Source: Candidatus Magasanikbacteria bacterium RIFOXYD1_FULL_40_23 (GTDB lineage Bacteria > Patescibacteriota > Patescibacteriia > Magasanikbacterales > GWA2-37-8). From it: 64,000 nucleotides of DNA. The notes under the pieces are model-generated. The model had not been told where the DNA came from. It searched no databases and saw nothing but the letters and a program-made list of their open reading frames with translations. The stretch spans positions 62,161-126,160 of the forward strand of contig MFRA01000001.1 in assembly GCA_001783215.1 (NCBI GenBank), in the 5' to 3' direction. Numbering within the stretch: the stretch's first letter is position 1; each line of letters opens with the position of its first letter. Both the position numbers and the translations under genes were made by a program. Shown piece after piece: positions 35,200-51,067 of the stretch.

Positions 35200-36060
35200 T
35201 TGTTTATGTTTGATACGCACTGCCATGTACAGTTTAATGGTTTTAAAGATGATGCTGAAGAGGTAATAAAAAAATGCGGTGACAAAAAAATGATTTTGAA
35301 TTTGGTTGGTACTCAAAAAGATACTAGTCGTGCCGGGGTAGAGATGGCCAACAAATTTCCGTTTACCTATGCCAGCATCGGGCTTCATCCAGTTCATCTT
35401 TTTTCTACTCATATAGACGAAGAAGAGAGTAAGTTTTTGTCGCGCGAAGAAACTTTTGATTATGAGTATTATAAAAATTTGGGACAGAGTAAAAAAGTAA
35501 TAGCAGTGGGGGAGTGTGGATTGGATTTATATAGATTACCAGAAGGACGAACAGTAGAAGAAGTGCTAGAAAAACAAAAAGAAACTTTTGCGTTGCAATA
35601 TAAATTGGCGCAAGAATTAAATGTGGCATTGGTAATTCATGTGCGAGAGGCGCACGAGCAGATGATAGAACTTTTGAAAAAACTTTCTAACAACGGTTCG
35701 GTGCGCGGAACGGTGCATTGTTATACCAGCAATTGGCATTTTGCCCAGCAGTATCTAGATATAGGTTTAAATATAGGTTTCACCGGTGTGATTACTTTTC
35801 CTCCAAGAAAAGCAGATCCACAAGCGCAAACAGATTTGCTAGAAGTAGTAAAAAATTGTCCGCTAGATAAAATAGTAGTAGAAACAGATGCGCCGTACTT
35901 GGCGCCGTTGCCATATAGAGGCCAAAGATGTGAACCGCAAATGGTGGAGCAAACCATTCGAAAAATTGCTCAATTAAAAAATATTTCCTTTGAAGAAGCG
36001 GAAAAAGCTACGACCGAAAACGCCAAAAAATTATTTAGAATTTCTTCTGAAAAAAATTGA
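35200..36060 (+). CDS. tatD: TatD-family metal-dependent DNase/hydrolase
   Basis: MFDTHCHVQF N-terminal HxH, GLHP, GECGLD, VIHVREA, ETDAPYL motifs. Confidence 0.9.
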   Translation: MFMFDTHCHVQFNGFKDDAEEVIKKCGDKKMILNLVGTQKDTSRAGVEMANKFPFTYASIGLHPVHLFSTHIDEEESKFLSREETFDYEYYKNLGQSKKVIAVGECGLDLYRLPEGRTVEEVLEKQKETFALQYKLAQELNVALVIHVREAHEQMIELLKKLSNNGSVRGTVHCYTSNWHFAQQYLDIGLNIGFTGVITFPPRKADPQAQTDLLEVVKNCPLDKIVVETDAPYLAPLPYRGQRCEPQMVEQTIRKIAQLKNISFEEAEKATTENAKKLFRISSEKN

Positions 36061-36111
36061 ACCCCGCACCGAACATCGGGCGAGGTAAAGCGTGGGTGTT
36101 GACCGCGAGAG

Positions 36112-36369
36112 TTATCGGGGTACACGCACCTTTTGGGGTCCGTACCTTCTACAGGCGATGTCTTCCTCGGTAATATCGTTGAGGTCGAATTCCATGGAAG
36201 GCGTAAAACCGCCGGTCATGCTAGTGAAGAAGTCCTCTAGCCACTGGTTGAATTCCTTGCCCAGGGACTGTAAGAACGCAATCGTCCAGTAGGTCAGCTC
36301 TTCTCCCAAGGAGCTGAGAGAATCTGACAATTCGTCAATCAACTTCTGAAACTCACTTTTCTTCTTCAT
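36112..36369 (-). CDS. small acidic protein (85 aa), G+C-rich island 2
   Basis: AGAGGA SD before ATG; upstream TTGACC promoter-like box (36420-36415); MKKKSEFQKLIDELSDSLSSLGEELTYW... Confidence 0.5.
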   Translation of the reverse strand: MKKKSEFQKLIDELSDSLSSLGEELTYWTIAFLQSLGKEFNQWLEDFFTSMTGGFTPSMEFDLNDITEEDIACRRYGPQKVRVPR

Positions 36370-36432
36370 GGGTTCCTCTTCCCAGTATTTAACCTATCAT
36401 ATTTTAGATTAGACGGTCAATTATATACAGTA

Positions 36433-36467
36433 ACAAAAAACACTCTGTATTATAGAGTGTTTTTTGT
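36433..36467. terminator. bidirectional intrinsic terminator (A-run / palindrome / T-run)
   Basis: aaaaaacactctgtattatagagtgttttttg: stem AACACTCT/AGAGTGTT flanked by A6 and T6. Confidence 0.65.
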
Positions 36468-36603
36468 TATCCGAGTGAGGTTATATGGCTGCAAATTTGT
36501 TCACCACCATCTTTCTAAAAGACAAGTTTTATCTCTAGAAAGATAGTGAGGTGGCGAACGAATGTTGCCAGGCTCACTGTTAAACGACGTTATAGTCGGA
36601 GGG

Positions 36604-36984
36604 CTAGAAGCCCAGTGTTGCGAGAGCCTGATCGGCTTCGTCGGGAGAGCAAGTGCCCATCCGTTGAGCGATCATGATCTGGCTCGCAACAGGTGTTGCT
36701 TGCGGCAACAATTCCTCGAGCACAGACCGGCGCAAAACCATGAGCGCTTGCAGAATCGAGAGTCGATCCAACAAGGGCAGGTTCTTCTGCTGGATGCGCA
36801 ACGCAAGGACCCGAAGGTCCATTGTGCCGAACAGTACCATGCAGGCTTCGTTGTGTGAGCGAAAGCTCGGGGACTGGAAACCCCCGGGCAGTTCGCGTAA
36901 ACTGCCATCCTGGCAGAGCTCCCCAGTAGCGAGGATGAACTGACCAGTGTGGCCGATGGGCTTGACGAAAACTCGCTCGTTCAT
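36604..36984 (-). CDS. small protein (126 aa), island 2 (start at MNERVFV)
   Basis: GGAGG 10 nt upstream of ATG; balanced composition unlike overlapping Arg/Ser-rich alternative frames; own promoter. Confidence 0.55.
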   Translation of the reverse strand: MNERVFVKPIGHTGQFILATGELCQDGSLRELPGGFQSPSFRSHNEACMVLFGTMDLRVLALRIQQKNLPLLDRLSILQALMVLRRSVLEELLPQATPVASQIMIAQRMGTCSPDEADQALATLGF

Positions 36985-37049
36985 AATGATGGCCTCCAAG
37001 CCTGGTTGAGAGAACGGTTTGTTCCCTCAGCGGGCAGAAAGAACGCGTT

Positions 37050-37109
37050 ATTTTGCCGAGGGAAAGGAAAAGACGATCTTTTCGTATGTTCTTTTCCCTG
37101 GCAAAAGGC
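37050..37109 (-). promoter_or_regulatory. conserved structured 5' UTR hairpin (UUUUGCCAGGG...CCCUCGGCAAAA), copy 1 of 3
   Basis: transcript reads ccttttgccagggaaaagaacatacgaaaagatcgtcttttcctttccctcggcaaaat; outer and inner inverted repeats; ~90 nt upstream of start codon. Confidence 0.55.
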
Positions 37110-37138
37110 GTTACTGCGTGGATTGTAAAGAGCTCTGT

Positions 37139-37167
37139 AATATAGGTTAAAATCTTGCCTTTGTCAA
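37139..37167 (-). promoter_or_regulatory. sigma70-like promoter TTGACA-17-TATATT for 36604-36984
   Basis: minus strand taTTGACAaaggcaagattttaaccTATATT. Confidence 0.55.
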
Positions 37168-37367
37168 TAGGCAAACCCACCACTCTATTTGGAAATATAC
37201 CACTGGGGATATATAATCAATATACACCTAAGATGTGCCTAAAGTTACAATCTATACAAAAAATCAAAAACAGCCTTATCTAAAGCTGTTTTTTAATGGC
37301 GACGTCGTGGTATGCACGACGTCGGCGAGTCGTAATTCTTCTAAACCCGTATCATCAGTCCTGTGGA

Positions 37368-37634
37368 CTAGATGATCTCGAGTTCGACCCTCTCGTACTT
37401 GATTCCCGGATGGGTGGGCTCGTCCCAGTCGAAGTATAGCTCATACACCGCTTCGTCAACGGCAGCAGCGATCTCTTCTGGTGTTCCCAACAACATCGGC
37501 ATGGAGTCGTTGTCGTTTGCAGTCTCCTCGGTTTGAGGAGTGCTTCCGTTGTCTTCTAGAGACTGACCACGTTGATGGGTCATCAGCACGGATTCTGCAA
37601 GTGCGAGGAACTGCGGATCTTCAGGACGAATCAT
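37368..37634 (-). CDS. small acidic protein (88 aa), island 2
   Basis: AGGAG SD; MIRPEDPQFLALAESVLMTHQRGQSLEDNG...; own promoter. Confidence 0.5.
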   Translation of the reverse strand: MIRPEDPQFLALAESVLMTHQRGQSLEDNGSTPQTEETANDNDSMPMLLGTPEEIAAAVDEAVYELYFDWDEPTHPGIKYERVELEII

Positions 37635-37714
37635 TCAGTAGCTCCTAGGAGAGTGGGGTTTATCAATACGAGACGACGCGCAAGTTTGGTTGCGGTGTCT
37701 CATTATGACCAAAA

Positions 37715-37743
37715 ACCATACCATAAAATGTTGTTAAAGTCAA
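37715..37743 (-). promoter_or_regulatory. sigma70-like promoter TTGACT-17-TATGGT for 37368-37634
   Basis: minus strand cTTGACTttaacaacattttatggTATGGT. Confidence 0.5.
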
Positions 37744-37770
37744 GAGCGTAGGGTAGAAAATGATTAAAAT

Positions 37771-37817
37771 AAAAAAAGCCTCGCTTTCGCAAGGCGTCGC
37801 CGTGTATTTTGTTTTTT
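37771..37817. terminator. bidirectional intrinsic terminator
   Basis: aaaaaaagcctcgctttcgcaaggcg...tattttgttttttgg: hairpin GCCTCGC/GCAAGGC with A-run and T-run flanks. Confidence 0.55.
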
Positions 37818-37824
37818 GGCTGTT

Positions 37825-38184
37825 TTAGCCAACAATTATGGATCGCTTGACCCGATTTTCCGTAAGGTAATCAATCACTTCGGAAAGGTCTGGGTTGCTG
37901 TTTCGGATATCTCTGAAACGTGTGTTGAGCAGAGACTTTTTTCCAAAGATAGATCTTGCATACGGCAATCCATTTTGGACTATTCTCTTGACGTCGAAAC
38001 GTCTATCTTTGTTCGGCCCTTCGAAGATAACGACAGTTTCGTCATCTTCGACGATTACAGAGCAGCTCCAATCTTCTTCGCCCACCAACAGATGTGGTGG
38101 ACCAGAATCATCTTTGGGCGGTTCAAGTTTTAGCACGAGCAGGTTGATGCTGCGGAGCAAACCCATGATATGTTGTACCGTCAT
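37825..38184 (-). CDS. small protein (119 aa), island 2
   Basis: GGTGAGG SD; promoter TTGAAA-17-TATATT upstream; plus-strand overlapping ORF lacks signals. Confidence 0.5.
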   Translation of the reverse strand: MTVQHIMGLLRSINLLVLKLEPPKDDSGPPHLLVGEEDWSCSVIVEDDETVVIFEGPNKDRRFDVKRIVQNGLPYARSIFGKKSLLNTRFRDIRNSNPDLSEVIDYLTENRVKRSIIVG

Positions 38185-38217
38185 GGTGCCTCACCCTTTG
38201 GTTGTTTAGTATAGACG

Positions 38218-38246
38218 AATATACCACCAAACCTTTATTTTTTCAA
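38218..38246 (-). promoter_or_regulatory. sigma70-like promoter TTGAAA-17-TATATT for 37825-38184
   Basis: minus strand gcTTGAAAaaataaaggtttggtggTATATT. Confidence 0.5.
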
Positions 38247-38312
38247 GCTAAATTTACAACGTCACTCTTTAGCGGATGTTGCGTGGTATAACTTAATTAA
38301 GTCAAAAAAAAG

Positions 38313-38362
38313 ACCTCGTATTGAAGTTGCCTTGGGGGCTATTCAATACGAGGCTGAACGTC
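38313..38362 (-). terminator. intrinsic terminator of 38403-38798
   Basis: 12-bp stem CCTCGTATTGAA/TTCAATACGAGG with 16-nt loop, T8 on minus strand. Confidence 0.65.
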
Positions 38363-38402
38363 TTGGTCTGCTTTGCGACTGATGTCGCTGGTAGAACCTA
38401 GT

Positions 38403-38798
38403 CTACTGCTGAGCGGTGTTGCGGGGGTACAAGTAGATGTAGCACCCCGTGTCGTGCGAGTCGACCGCGTAGCCGGTCTGGTCCTTCTCGGCCTCGAGGC
38501 GGAGCTCGACGTTGGTCGGCAGGCTGCGGACGATCGCGTTGATCTCCTTGTTGGCCTTGGCGCAGGGGATGCGGCCGAGGCGAGCGCGGAGCTCGAGGTC
38601 CTGGATCTCCTTGATCGCGGCCTTGAGCTGCTTCTTGCTGATGCTCTTGGCAGCCGCGGCGCGCACGGGCTTCTTCTCGTTGGTGTCGTTCGCCTTCGAG
38701 ACGAAGCCGGCGTCGGCGTGGGCCGTGCTGATGCCGAGGTCGAACAGGGCGATGAAGCCGACGGTCAGGGCGATGGCGATGATGGCGATGCGGGTCAT
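38403..38798 (-). CDS. small secreted protein (131 aa, signal peptide), island 2
   Basis: MTRIAIIAIALTVGFIALFDLGISTAHA signal-peptide-like N-terminus; GAGGAG SD; lysine/alanine-rich mature part. Confidence 0.55.
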   Translation of the reverse strand: MTRIAIIAIALTVGFIALFDLGISTAHADAGFVSKANDTNEKKPVRAAAAKSISKKQLKAAIKEIQDLELRARLGRIPCAKANKEINAIVRSLPTNVELRLEAEKDQTGYAVDSHDTGCYIYLYPRNTAQQ

Positions 38799-38857
38799 GG
38801 GACTCTCCTCGGTAACGGGTTCGTAACGTTAACTGCTTGCCGGCGCACAAAGGTGTG

Positions 38858-38914
38858 CTTTTGTGCCGGGGAAGTGAAAGTGTAGCCTCTACACTCCCTT
38901 TTCCCTGGCAAAAC
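38858..38914 (-). promoter_or_regulatory. conserved structured 5' UTR hairpin, copy 2 of 3
   Basis: transcript reads cgttttgccagggaaaagggagtgtagaggctacactttcacttccccggcacaaaag; same outer arms UUUUGCCAGGG/CCCCGGCA.AAAA. Confidence 0.55.
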
Positions 38915-38945
38915 GCAAACAGTTATTATTAAAGATCAACAGACA

Positions 38946-38974
38946 ACTATACCATAAAACTAGGACTTTGTCAA
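38946..38974 (-). promoter_or_regulatory. sigma70-like promoter TTGACA-17-TATAGT for 38403-38798
   Basis: minus strand ccTTGACAaagtcctagttttatggTATAGT. Confidence 0.55.
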
Positions 38975-39040
38975 GGGGTTGATTTGGCGAAATCACGTCG
39001 CGTAGCGTCCATTGAACGCGACGTTTGGCTAATTTTAGGC

Positions 39041-39084
39041 AAAAAAACAGCGCTACCTACACCTAGTTGGTGAGTGGTAGCGCC
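39041..39084 (-). terminator. intrinsic terminator of 39116-39529
   Basis: minus strand gcgctaccactcaccaactaggtgtaggtagcgc then tgttttttt. Confidence 0.55.
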
Positions 39085-39115
39085 TGCGTTGGTACGGCTC
39101 TAGTCGCAGTTGCGA

Positions 39116-39529
39116 CTATGGCCAGATAAGTGGAATGTCCATGCTGGGGTAGATGGCCTCCAGGGTGTAGAGGTCCATGTCCATCACGGACAGGTACCAC
39201 TCGAAGTCGAAGAGTTCGACGGAAGTCGTGGGAGGGTTAGCATCCCACCAAGCACAGTTGCCAAACCGCCACCTTCGCAGAGCTTCGTAGTACTCCGCTT
39301 CCAGCTCGACAAGCTTGTCTCGACAAGCTTGGCTAGTCGTGCCGCCGATATAGCGACAGGTAAGCTTTGGGTATTGGAGCTGGCTCTCGGCGAGGGTGTA
39401 TCGCTGCTTCAGCTTCTTGCACGTATCGTAGTCGTACGTGCCCGAGGGTGGCGTATCGGCATAGGCCGTGCCGACGTTCGGCAGCAGCATGCCCAGAGCA
39501 ATACACATCGCGATCAGGATCTTCACCAT
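39116..39529 (-). CDS. small secreted Cys-containing protein (137 aa), island 2 (start at MVKILIAM)
   Basis: GGAGAG SD before internal Met; MVKILIAMCIALGMLLPNVGTAYA signal peptide; four Cys in mature part. Confidence 0.55.
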   Translation of the reverse strand: MVKILIAMCIALGMLLPNVGTAYADTPPSGTYDYDTCKKLKQRYTLAESQLQYPKLTCRYIGGTTSQACRDKLVELEAEYYEALRRWRFGNCAWWDANPPTTSVELFDFEWYLSVMDMDLYTLEAIYPSMDIPLIWP

Positions 39530-39564
39530 TTCTCTGTCTCTCCAATTTCTTCTGTGACGGTTGA

Positions 39565-39619
39565 TTTTTACCAAGACGAAAGAAGCTACGAATTTCGCAT
39601 ATTCTTTTATCTCGGTAAA
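39565..39619 (-). promoter_or_regulatory. conserved structured 5' UTR hairpin, copy 3 of 3 (with compensatory ACC:GGU for GCC:GGC)
   Basis: transcript reads ctttaccgagataaaagaatatgcgaaattcgtagcttctttcgtcttggtaaaaat. Confidence 0.55.
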
Positions 39620-39652
39620 GAGCAGACCGCTTGGTTAAATGAGCGATTCGCC

Positions 39653-39682
39653 ATCTTATATTAAAAAATGCCTTTTGTCAAT
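39653..39682 (-). promoter_or_regulatory. sigma70-like promoter TTGACA-17-TAAGAT for 39116-39529
   Basis: minus strand taTTGACAaaaggcattttttaataTAAGAT. Confidence 0.45.
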
Positions 39683-39699
39683 AGTCGGACTAGTAGATC

Positions 39700-40010
39700 A
39701 TTTTCAAAAATCCTTGATTTTACTTTGATTTACATGTAAAATAATCGCGTTCTTACCATTTTGTATAGCTTAACCACTTCGCGTATGGAACAGGAATAAT
39801 TACAAAATCTTCCAGTCGTGATTACCAGATTTTGTCCTTTAAAATCATCGAAAGTTTTGGTGCTTCTATTGCAGTACCAGTGGTAAGATTTGTTCTAATC
39901 GGTCAATACTTTGATAAAAAATATAACTTATAACCGTTGTTTACTGTTATAGCCTTTGTGCTGGCCGCTGCCACCACTCAAAACGCAAAAAAACTATTTA
40001 GTAAAATGAT
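39700..40010 (+). pseudogene. decayed duplicate of atp-operon promoter plus atpZ/atpI-like gene (direct repeat of 43355-43660)
   Basis: ~85% identical by eye to 43355-43660 including TTGA(t/c)T promoter; reading frame broken: atggaacaggaaTAA after 4 codons and second in-frame TAA where intact copy has LSP. Confidence 0.7.
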
Positions 40011-47560: not shown

Positions 47561-48505
47561 ATGGCAATTAATACAAAAGTAATCAAACGCCGCCTTAAAT
47601 CTATTGGTAGTACCAAAAAAATTACCAAAGCTATGGAGATGATTGCGGCTGCCAAAATGCGCAAAGCGGTAAGCGCTGCTATAGATACGCGCGCTTATTC
47701 CAGCTTGGCTTGGGAACTTTTGGTTAACTTGTCCAAAACTCAAAAAGTACAAATTCCATTGTTGGAAGCAAGGCAAGTAAAAAAGATTTTGGTTATCATG
47801 ATTACTTCTAATCGTGGTTTGTGTGGTAGTTTTAATGCCAATATTATAAAAAAGACCGCTCTGCAAATGAAGGATCCAAAAAATATTGCTAAACAGGTAA
47901 TTGATGGAAAAGAAATATTGCCAAGCGACAGAGTAGAGGTAGATGTAATTGGTATTGGTAAAAAAGGCGCAGACTTTGCCAAAAAGATGGGCTACAACCT
48001 TACCGCCGCTTTTTCTAACATGACAGATACTCCAAATTTTGATGATGCGTTACCGATTGCCAAAATGGTAATAGATGCATATGAGAAAAAAACTTACGAC
48101 AAAGTAATTGTTGCTTATACCGATTTTAAATCGGCTTTAGTGCAAACTGCCAGACTACGACAAGTGTTGCCAATATCCGAATCTGATTTAGAAAAAACTT
48201 TATTTGATACAGAAGAAAAAAACTCTGTAAAAGAAAAAACAAATTTAAATGATTATTTATTTGAACCAAACAGAACTGATGTTTTACAAATAATTTTACC
48301 AAGGCTGGTTGAAACACAAATTTATCAAACGATGCTAGAATCTTCGGCCAGTGAACATAGTAGTCGTATGGTGGCTATGAAAGCTGCTAGTGAAGCAGCC
48401 AAAGATATGATAAGTGAATTAAATTTAACATTTAATAAAGCTAGACAAGCGGGCATCACCCAAGAGATCGCAGAGATCGCAGGTGGGGCAGCAGCGCTAG
48501 AATAA
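47561..48505 (+). CDS. atpG: F0F1 ATP synthase subunit gamma
   Basis: MAINTKVIKRRLKSIGSTKKITKAMEMIAAAK N-terminus; C-terminal helix. Confidence 0.9.
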   Translation: MAINTKVIKRRLKSIGSTKKITKAMEMIAAAKMRKAVSAAIDTRAYSSLAWELLVNLSKTQKVQIPLLEARQVKKILVIMITSNRGLCGSFNANIIKKTALQMKDPKNIAKQVIDGKEILPSDRVEVDVIGIGKKGADFAKKMGYNLTAAFSNMTDTPNFDDALPIAKMVIDAYEKKTYDKVIVAYTDFKSALVQTARLRQVLPISESDLEKTLFDTEEKNSVKEKTNLNDYLFEPNRTDVLQIILPRLVETQIYQTMLESSASEHSSRMVAMKAASEAAKDMISELNLTFNKARQAGITQEIAEIAGGAAALE

Positions 48506-48660: not shown

Positions 48661-50034
<1,374 letters not shown>

Positions 50035-50078
50035 TTAAGCCTGCCGGATTAAGGGCAGGCGTAAAGATCGGTAAGGCA

Positions 50079-50363
50079 CTATTCTGGAAATGGAAGGAAC
50101 GACATAACACGGAGAGTTTCATATGGAGGAGAGTGGTGAAAGCGGGGGCAAATGTCACCAAGATAATCCCACAACTCTTTTTCTCCAAGATCCTCACGCA
50201 AATTCTCCCAGTTATACCTCTGAACTGGTTTAGACAGTAAATTAGTTAAACGGTCAAGGATCTCAATCGTAGCAGAAACTTTAAGCACCCTTGCCTCCAT
50301 AAAATTACCAATCTTATCAAAAGCATGGATAAGGAGCAACCATTCTCTAGATTTCTGTGACAT
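50079..50363 (-). CDS. small protein (94 aa) encoded antisense between atpD and atpC
   Basis: AGGAGG 8 nt before ATG; minus-strand promoter TTGACA-17-TATACT; shares hairpin terminator GCCTGCC..GGCAGGC (50039-50061) with atpD. Confidence 0.45.
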   Translation of the reverse strand: MSQKSREWLLLIHAFDKIGNFMEARVLKVSATIEILDRLTNLLSKPVQRYNWENLREDLGEKELWDYLGDICPRFHHSPPYETLRVMSFLPFPE

Positions 50364-50384
50364 GGTAAGATCCTCCTAGAAAGG

Positions 50385-50413
50385 AGTATAGAAAAATAAA
50401 AATTTTATGTCAA
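50385..50413 (-). promoter_or_regulatory. sigma70-like promoter TTGACA-17-TATACT for the antisense small gene; -35 overlaps atpC start codon
   Basis: minus strand gtgTTGACAtaaaatttttatttttcTATACT. Confidence 0.45.
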
Positions 50414-50838
50414 CACTAAAATTCAAAATCGTAACACCGGAAAAAACAATTTACGAAAATGAAATTTTCCAAGCCACTATTCCTACTATGGAAGGTGAGA
50501 TTACGGTTCTTCCAAATCATATTCCACTTATTTCTGTTCTCAAAGCCGGTGAATTAAAATTCAAAGATAAAGAAGGTGAACAGCAAATGGCAGTCTCTGG
50601 TGGATTTTTGGAAGTAAGAGGAAAAAATGAAATTGTAATTTTAGCAGATCATGCGCAGAGAGTAGCCGAGATAGATGTGGATAAAGCCGAAGAAGCTCGC
50701 GCACGTGCTGAAGAACAAATGGCAAATCTAAAGAATGCTCAAGATGTAGATTATGCAAAACTTCAAGCTATAATGGATAGAGAATTAAACAAATTGCGAG
50801 TCGCAAAAAAGTATAAAAATCTTCCAATTAGTAAATAA
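50407..50838 (+). CDS. atpC: F0F1 ATP synthase subunit epsilon
   Basis: 143 aa, beta-sandwich plus C-terminal helical hairpin, operon position. Confidence 0.85.
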   Translation: MSTLKFKIVTPEKTIYENEIFQATIPTMEGEITVLPNHIPLISVLKAGELKFKDKEGEQQMAVSGGFLEVRGKNEIVILADHAQRVAEIDVDKAEEARARAEEQMANLKNAQDVDYAKLQAIMDRELNKLRVAKKYKNLPISK

Positions 50839-50847
50839 TAAATCTGA

Positions 50848-50876
50848 TTGACAAGCCGTTGTAAATAAGGTATATA
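50848..50876 (+). promoter_or_regulatory. sigma70 consensus promoter TTGACA-17-TATATA for Cys-rich peptide gene
   Basis: ttgacaagccgttgtaaataaggtatata. Confidence 0.55.
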
Positions 50877-50932
50877 TATTGGATATAATTTAGTCGTTCC
50901 TAAACGACCTCTAAATCATAATCTTATATCCT

Positions 50933-51067
50933 ATGGAAAAGTGTCAAAAATGTAGAACTGTACTTGAAGAGATGAATGATTCTTGTTTATGTAATGAAAG
51001 CGTTTGTGTGCGTTGTTGCGGATGTGATGAAAGCTGTGGTTGCGAATGTATTGATAAACAAAGTTAA
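50933..51067 (+). CDS. 44-aa cysteine-rich peptide (11 Cys); below ORF-track size cut-off
   Basis: translation MEKCQKCRTVLEEMNDSCLCNESVCVRCCGCDESCGCECIDKQS; dedicated promoter and downstream terminator; no SD. Confidence 0.5.
   Translation: MEKCQKCRTVLEEMNDSCLCNESVCVRCCGCDESCGCECIDKQS

Follow-up and report, generated by a model that had tools for sequence, protein, structure and literature searches.

Within the F1Fo ATP synthase operon of this 64,000-nucleotide stretch of DNA (the window), a reading frame of 94 codons (ORF94) lies on the minus strand between atpD and atpC, and it is very probably a real gene with independent expression signals. With slightly better than even confidence, we propose that it is a lineage-restricted orphan gene forming a compact, self-contained unit that converges on the atp operon and antagonises expression of the epsilon subunit encoded by atpC. 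By its gene arrangement, the locus is best filed as a candidate instance of the noncontiguous operon or excludon, built around a new orphan family; such operons were reportedly described by Saenz-Lahoya et al. in 2019. The F1Fo operon is among the most conserved gene arrays in bacteria, and a conserved protein gene running backward inside it makes an unusually clean case of this arrangement. The setting is a small group of uncultured groundwater bacteria with poorly understood energy metabolism, and a literature search for antisense genes in atp operons or for the ATP synthase of Magasanikbacteria returned nothing relevant.

The ORF94 gene and its expression signals

The neighbouring operon genes are all on the plus strand: atpG (47561-48505, Pfam-confirmed), the upstream gene atpD for the F1 beta subunit (48667-50034, in the ORF list, Pfam ATP-synt_ab, E 1.5e-74), and atpC for the F1 epsilon subunit (50407-50838, Pfam ATP-synt_DE_N from residue 4). 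The atpD-atpC spacer, earlier given as unusually long at 370 bp, measures 372 bp; across a comparison set of 80 species-representative genomes that have a related epsilon gene, the spacers have a median length of 96 bp and reach 350 bp or more in 10. ORF94 occupies 50079-50363 of the minus strand with an ATG start, according to the ORF list and its homologues, and the expected AGGAGG Shine-Dalgarno (SD) sequence is indeed present at 50372-50377 on that strand, 8 nt upstream of the ATG. Sequence and promoter scan agree with the original prediction on the promoter as well, with the -35 hexamer TTGACA at 50408-50413 and the -10 hexamer TATACT at 50385-50390 (both minus strand), giving the order TTGACA, 17 nt, TATACT, 7 nt, AGGAGG, 8 nt, ATG. 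This is the top promoter match of the region (11 of 12 positions). The -35 hexamer lies inside atpC codons 1-3 (ATG TCA A..), spanning the TG of the ATG, the Ser2 codon TCA and the first base of codon 3, so that one codon doubles as a promoter element and the locus exemplifies overlapping signals.

The same signals accompany the gene in its other lineages. The -35 hexamer TTGACA is invariant and in all lineages is the reverse complement of the epsilon start 'ATG TCA A'; the -35/-10 spacer is 16-17 nt; the -10 hexamer is of the form TAnnnT in ten lineages (TATACT, TATTAT, TACACT, TATGCT, TACCCT) and weaker in L026 (TTAATT); the distance from -10 to SD is 6-7 nt (10 in L026); and an SD of the form (A)GGAGG, GGGAGG or AGGGAG stands 6-10 nt ahead of the ATG in all lineages. 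By its hexamers, their separation and their conserved position, this is a sigma-70-type promoter in sequence, and transcription is predicted to start about 7 nt downstream of the -10 hexamer, near 50378, right at the SD. The complete cassette was found again in 11 diverged lineages, which is beyond chance.

Across atpD, atpC and atpG of seven lineages, only 4 of the 33 invariant serine columns keep a single codon; Ser2 of epsilon, which is TCA in all seven, is one of those four, and TCA is a minority codon here. Conservation beyond the synonymous background points to a constraint on Ser2 TCA at the DNA level. Epsilon of the carriers begins MS[TI], an N-terminal extension that encodes the -35 hexamer, and epsilon of all ten close non-carriers begins M[LI]K. 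In one ORF-less relative (L019, 2910-2997) the middle of the spacer contains ATGTCAAC on the atp strand, perhaps left over from an epsilon start of the carrier type, perhaps there by chance. In carriers and non-carriers alike, atpC has no SD at the normal distance (window 50380-50406 and its equivalents in L018-L030); an A/T-rich tract, AAAAATTT, precedes the atpC ATG, with GGAG or GGGA about 16-24 nt upstream.

At the other end of the unit, a hairpin GCCTGCC-8-GGCAGGC with a 7-bp stem and an 8-nt loop (50039-50060, minus strand, terminator scan) is directly followed by the T-rich tract TTAATTATTTTAC (50026-50038, minus strand), which covers the atpD stop codon (50032-50034). This hairpin had been taken to terminate atpD too, a role that the data do not bear out: a T-run is present on the minus strand alone, the scan lists the minus strand only, and the features of an intrinsic terminator are found on that strand and are missing on the plus (atpD) strand. 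The run TTAATTATTTT after the hairpin overlaps the atpD stop, so that the last codons and stop codon of atpD supply the T-run of the ORF94 terminator. A GC-rich hairpin with 5-8 T behind it is present in every lineage, and the stems covary. In L003, L011, L017, L026, L007 and L014 the stems include G·U pairs, and since the atp strand would have C·A mismatches at these positions, the hairpin is more stable in ORF-sense than in atp-sense RNA (e.g. -23.6 versus -14.5 and -12.8 versus -8.3 kcal/mol). Because both the T-run and the G·U pairs occur on the ORF strand only, we regard the hairpin as the putative terminator of ORF94 and not of atpD.

That ORF94 encodes a protein is indicated by its homologues. 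A search of 5.8 billion proteins, complemented by an exhaustive HMMER search of 1.84 billion representatives, gave a family of 11 protein clusters including the window's own gene (P0001-P0006, P0008, P0010-P0013; 20-73% identity), with one further metagenomic copy (L098). With start codons corrected the members are 84-100 aa long, their frames are intact in all 11 clusters and in every related genome with the long spacer, and all length differences are in frame. Every member with a readable contig lies in the epsilon-beta gap on the opposite strand, and the gene order atpD (+), ORF94 (-), atpC (+) is identical in loci L001-L017, L026, L098 and L100. The closest copy (L001) is about 70-71% identical in protein with a dN/dS of 0.19, and the differences between the two by codon position [23, 10, 35] follow the 3>1>2 pattern; dN/dS is 0.13-0.34 in eight main-family pairs and 0.55 when the L017 copy is compared with the divergent one of L026. 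Flanking atp genes are saturated between the window and L001 (dS 1.3-2.0). The anticipated independent small gene antisense within the operon is thus borne out as a frame under purifying selection, with promoter, SD and terminator kept alongside. Codon-level selection, in-frame indels and a conserved start rule out a chance ORF and make a purely non-coding role very unlikely; the gene is under purifying selection and so does something.

The deposited annotation of the gene should be corrected, as 73 of the 94 codons were called. In the source genome it is the hypothetical protein A2563_01660 of 73 aa, the same short start is used in an ENA relative (L001, 2756-3037), and both public 73-aa calls (P0001, P0002) begin at the internal Met22, so that they lack the ATG linked to the SD as well as the first beta strand, which is conserved. 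These calls are 5'-truncated, because homologue alignments begin at residue 4-5 of the 94-aa form and residues W8, I12, H13, F15 and F21, invariant across nine clusters, lie upstream of the Met22 start.

Predicted read-through of the atp operon and convergent transcription

Epsilon has a dN/dS of 0.09, and such strong purifying selection means that it must be expressed. ORF94 transcription had been expected to run across the promoter-proximal region of atpC, and the promoter scan found no recognisable atpC promoter there; a simple scan of the spacers of ten lineages showed no conserved atp-sense promoter-like site, and the terminator scan showed no plus-strand (atp-sense) terminator in the spacer. 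With neither element in the spacer, atpC appears to be made by read-through from atpD, antisense across ORF94, which would be the simplest route; an unconventional atpC promoter could be invisible to a simple scan.

We propose the following course of events, modelled on the known architecture of noncontiguous operons. ORF94 transcription would begin at the sigma-70-type promoter whose -35 hexamer sits in the first three codons of atpC, translation would start from the strong SD nearly at the 5' end of the mRNA, and the transcript would end at the intrinsic terminator with its U-tract over the atpD stop codon. Polymerase arriving from atpD would either occlude the ORF94 promoter or displace polymerase from it; conversely, polymerase bound at that promoter would cover about the first 9 codons of atpC. 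Reaching from about 50378 to about 50030, the ORF94 mRNA would base-pair with the atp mRNA along the full intercistronic stretch, and initiation, elongation and a sense/antisense duplex of about 350 bp could together leave less intact atpC message. Antagonism between ORF94 and epsilon could thus plausibly come about by occlusion, by collision or by duplex processing, and by this analogy we put the chance that ORF94 does antagonise epsilon expression at about even. If true, this would be a new way to tune ATPase stoichiometry or the brake on hydrolysis.

Interference between convergent promoters is described by sitting-duck, occlusion and collision models, and the present case is similar in that a strong predicted promoter would fire head-on into a transcribed operon.

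In a noncontiguous operon, a gene on the opposite strand separates the genes of a single operon, the operon transcript overlaps the mRNA of that gene in full, and the two repress each other; according to the authors of that definition, such operons are not predictable without transcriptome data (PMC11034616). The gene arrangement is found here, as in Staphylococcus aureus: a single opposite-strand gene is flanked by co-directional operon genes, the operon transcript would cover its mRNA from end to end, and, as in many of the S. aureus cases (PMC11034616), it encodes a small protein. By the same comparison mutual repression would be expected. Unlike those cases, the co-transcription of atpD and atpC is here a prediction from sequence alone, and the host operon encodes the F1Fo ATP synthase in a clade of uncultured Patescibacteria. 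The ORF94 unit is also unusually compact next to the S. aureus examples, its -35 hexamer falling in the start-codon region of atpC downstream and its U-tract covering the stop codon of atpD upstream.

Distribution of ORF94 and insertion at the atpD-atpC junction

Among the 80 related species genomes, two carry ORF94 (L026, and L020, whose contig is identical with that of L007), and a six-frame HMM search of the 80 loci gave matches in these two carriers only. Ten close relatives, with epsilon 74-93% and beta 93-98% identical to those of the window, have spacers of 2-195 bp and no ORF94, and whatever ORF94 does would for that reason seem to be dispensable. Carriers and non-carriers are mixed in one crown clade labelled Magasanikbacteria or Patescibacteria in neighbour-joining trees of gamma, beta and epsilon (AtpG+D+C), which are shallow, of low resolution and displayed without bootstrap values. 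ORF94 also evolves faster than epsilon (36-71% versus 77-85% identity). Fast evolution and absence from many close relatives suggest that it is an accessory factor, not a core component of ATP synthase, and the locus is a clear example of an essential operon that rapidly gains and loses an accessory gene.

The most serious competing explanation, which we consider possible, at perhaps half the strength of an even bet, is that ORF94 is a selfish or neutral passenger in a hot spot that tolerates insertions; atp expression would then be affected, if at all, incidentally and without selection for it, and the overlaps with the atpC start and the atpD stop would be by-products of compaction, or would hinder deletion. 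The patchy occurrence among close relatives fits this explanation, as does the atpD-atpC spacer of other Patescibacteria, which hosts many unrelated inserts and MITE-like palindromes. Since unrelated inserts occupy the same spacer, the junction tolerates insertions and seems to be a hot spot for them. ORF94 resembles these insert genes in being small, patchy and located in that spacer. It differs from them in that they lie on the sense strand and, judged by their motifs, belong to widespread multi-copy families, and ORF94 is always antisense, is confined to a single locus and has its own conserved promoter and terminator, which counts against the passenger explanation.

The inserts themselves were observed in more distant Patescibacteria as sense-strand genes, which by eye, from their motifs, were assigned to GIY-YIG-like, four-helix-bundle, GxxExxY-like and cyclophilin-like (PPIase) families, with two other ORFs (loci L060 693-947, L081 2722-2976, L068 2587-2958, L074 2607-2981, L075 2449-2967, L092 2515-2934, L035 2120-2857 and L052 2200-2927). 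Palindromes with TGTCAT(TCC)...(GGA)ATGACA ends, resembling MITE/REP-type repeats, fill ORF-less spacers (L021 2803-2997, L023 2868-2985, L025 2961-3003, L028 2906-2997 and L030 2924-3003).

Phylogeny bears on the passenger explanation from both sides. The ORF tree conflicts with the flank tree: the window's ORF is nearest to L001 in sequence, though the L001 flanks are distant; it is 43% identical to that of L007, though the L007 flanks are closest; and L017 and L026 have sister flanks and ORFs of 20% identity. Such incongruence may reflect a cassette that moves as a passenger, and the GC3 of ORF94 lies above that of its neighbours (0.39 versus 0.22-0.31). Against movement, the flanks show no recombination mosaic; the specific candidate of a window cassette recombined from an L001-like donor was examined by sliding-window flank identity and rejected on this ground. 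The history may have been one of many clean losses or of cassette exchange. Nor does ORF94 co-vary with the F1 subunits, again as a passenger would behave; co-adaptation of F1 with ORF94 carriage was discarded as a candidate after no column of beta, gamma or epsilon separated carriers from non-carriers. On the other hand, no copy was found at any other locus or in 2.9 million viral contigs, neither mobility genes nor terminal repeats accompany ORF94, and purifying selection on it is sustained in all lineages. A first-pass family scan of genome contigs likewise gave no ORF94 match, and the window contains no paralogue.

A further and unlikely possibility is that ORF94 arose de novo from the spacer, seeded by an accidental TTGACA in the 'ATG TCA A' start. 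When de novo origin was tested, the spacers of ORF-less relatives were found to be short or unrelated, often with MITE-like palindromes.

The ORF94 protein and other features of the window

Structure prediction of the 94-aa product from a nine-sequence alignment, a check proposed at the outset, returned a confident AlphaFold2 model (pLDDT 81.7, pTM 0.72) with strands at residues 6-15 and 21-31, a helix at 33-43, a short helix at 52-58, a helix at 62-75 and a strand at 83-91. The L026/L100 subfamily was modelled with the same topology at lower confidence (pLDDT 63). Members of the family have pI values of 5.3-9.6, mostly near neutral, and GRAVY at or below about 0, and no hydrophobic segment was seen by eye. 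On this model ORF94 is a small soluble beta-beta-alpha-alpha-alpha-beta protein without known relatives, and the family is an orphan one with a confident yet unmatched fold.

Searches for relatives outside the family were negative. Pfam and NCBIfam profile searches with one or all members gave no match above cut-off, and an lp1_17_inhib match of 15.5 bits was rejected against a cut-off of 80. A PDB sequence profile search with ORF94 found nothing, and the best E values were 0.46 with Foldseek against PDB, 0.06 against BFVD and 0.09 (not significant) against PHROGs; PADLOC gave 0 matches. No homology was detectable to known ATP synthase subunits or regulators (epsilon, AtpTheta, zeta/DUF1476, IF1, AtpI), and the idea that ORF94 is a diverged inverted copy of epsilon was abandoned at an hhalign probability of 0.1%. 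The invariant polar residues H13, R25 and R85 are lost in the L026/L100 subfamily, and this failure to retain them argues against a conserved catalytic site.

Small ATP synthase inhibitors are known, including cyanobacterial AtpTheta, the alphaproteobacterial zeta subunit, IF1 and the C-terminal domain of epsilon. ORF94 falls in the same size class of under 100 aa, and its own genomic association with atp genes leaves room for a link; these inhibitors are mainly helical, whereas ORF94 is modelled as a three-stranded sheet with helices, and AtpTheta is encoded outside the operon, ORF94 inside it. It is improbable, in our view, that ORF94 serves F1Fo as a regulator or assembly factor specific to this clade, encoded beside its target genes and expressed when operon transcription falls; for any action of the protein on ATP synthase we would likewise allow only a small chance. 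The absolutely conserved gene neighbourhood in 11 lineages is what such a factor would predict, the convergent layout would naturally yield inverse expression, and precedents exist in small regulatory proteins such as AtpTheta (bioRxiv 10.1101/2021.07.30.454416; PMC9241938). The carriers are, however, all in one narrow clade, so that plain inheritance may explain the synteny; the closest relatives, with near-identical F1, lack the gene; and both the missing sequence or fold similarity to any known factor or epsilon and the loss of H13, R25 and R85 in one subfamily count against this role.

The boldest idea, and one about as doubtful, is that ORF94 is a recently evolved, clade-specific switch of the F-type ATPase: with its promoter fused to the epsilon start codon, a cell would make either epsilon or ORF94, and the protein would reinforce the resulting state via F1 or the atp mRNA. 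Fermentative Patescibacteria probably run the F-type ATPase in reverse, making a proton gradient, and epsilon is the enzyme's built-in brake on ATP hydrolysis. That the unit is instead a regulatory antisense RNA against the atpD-atpC junction, with an incidental, untranslated ORF, is very improbable: the conserved promoter and terminator and a transcript that would fully complement the intercistronic atp mRNA would suit it, but the codon-periodic substitutions with the dN/dS values given above (main family and L017-L026), indels that are all in frame, a strong SD conserved at fixed distance, the confident protein fold, the lack of an Rfam match on either strand and unremarkable folding (z = -0.9 for the ORF strand, -2.0 for the atp strand) all speak against it.

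Two further features of the window were observed apart from the proposed antisense unit. The expression signals of ORF94 had been likened to those of the genes in a GC-rich island, and this holds loosely: minus-strand ORFs do stand behind TTGACA-17-TATAxT at 36-39.7 kb. The island (about 36000-39700; 45-53% GC versus 38.7% for the window) contains several small minus-strand ORFs with first hexamers at 38974, 37167 and 39681 and some terminator-like hairpins; nearly all other genes of the window are on the plus strand. Directly downstream of atpC, a plus-strand ORF of 44 aa with 12 cysteines (MEKCQKCRTVLEEMNDSCLCNESVCVRCCGCDESCGCECIDKQS; 50933-51067) is preceded by a promoter-like TTGACA...TATATA/TGGATATAAT at about 50848-50890. 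It has no Pfam match, and in tblastn it is kept after atpC in more than 20 related loci at 51-91% identity, in ORF94 carriers and non-carriers alike; it resembles a small, conserved protein of the metal-binding or zinc-ribbon-like kind.
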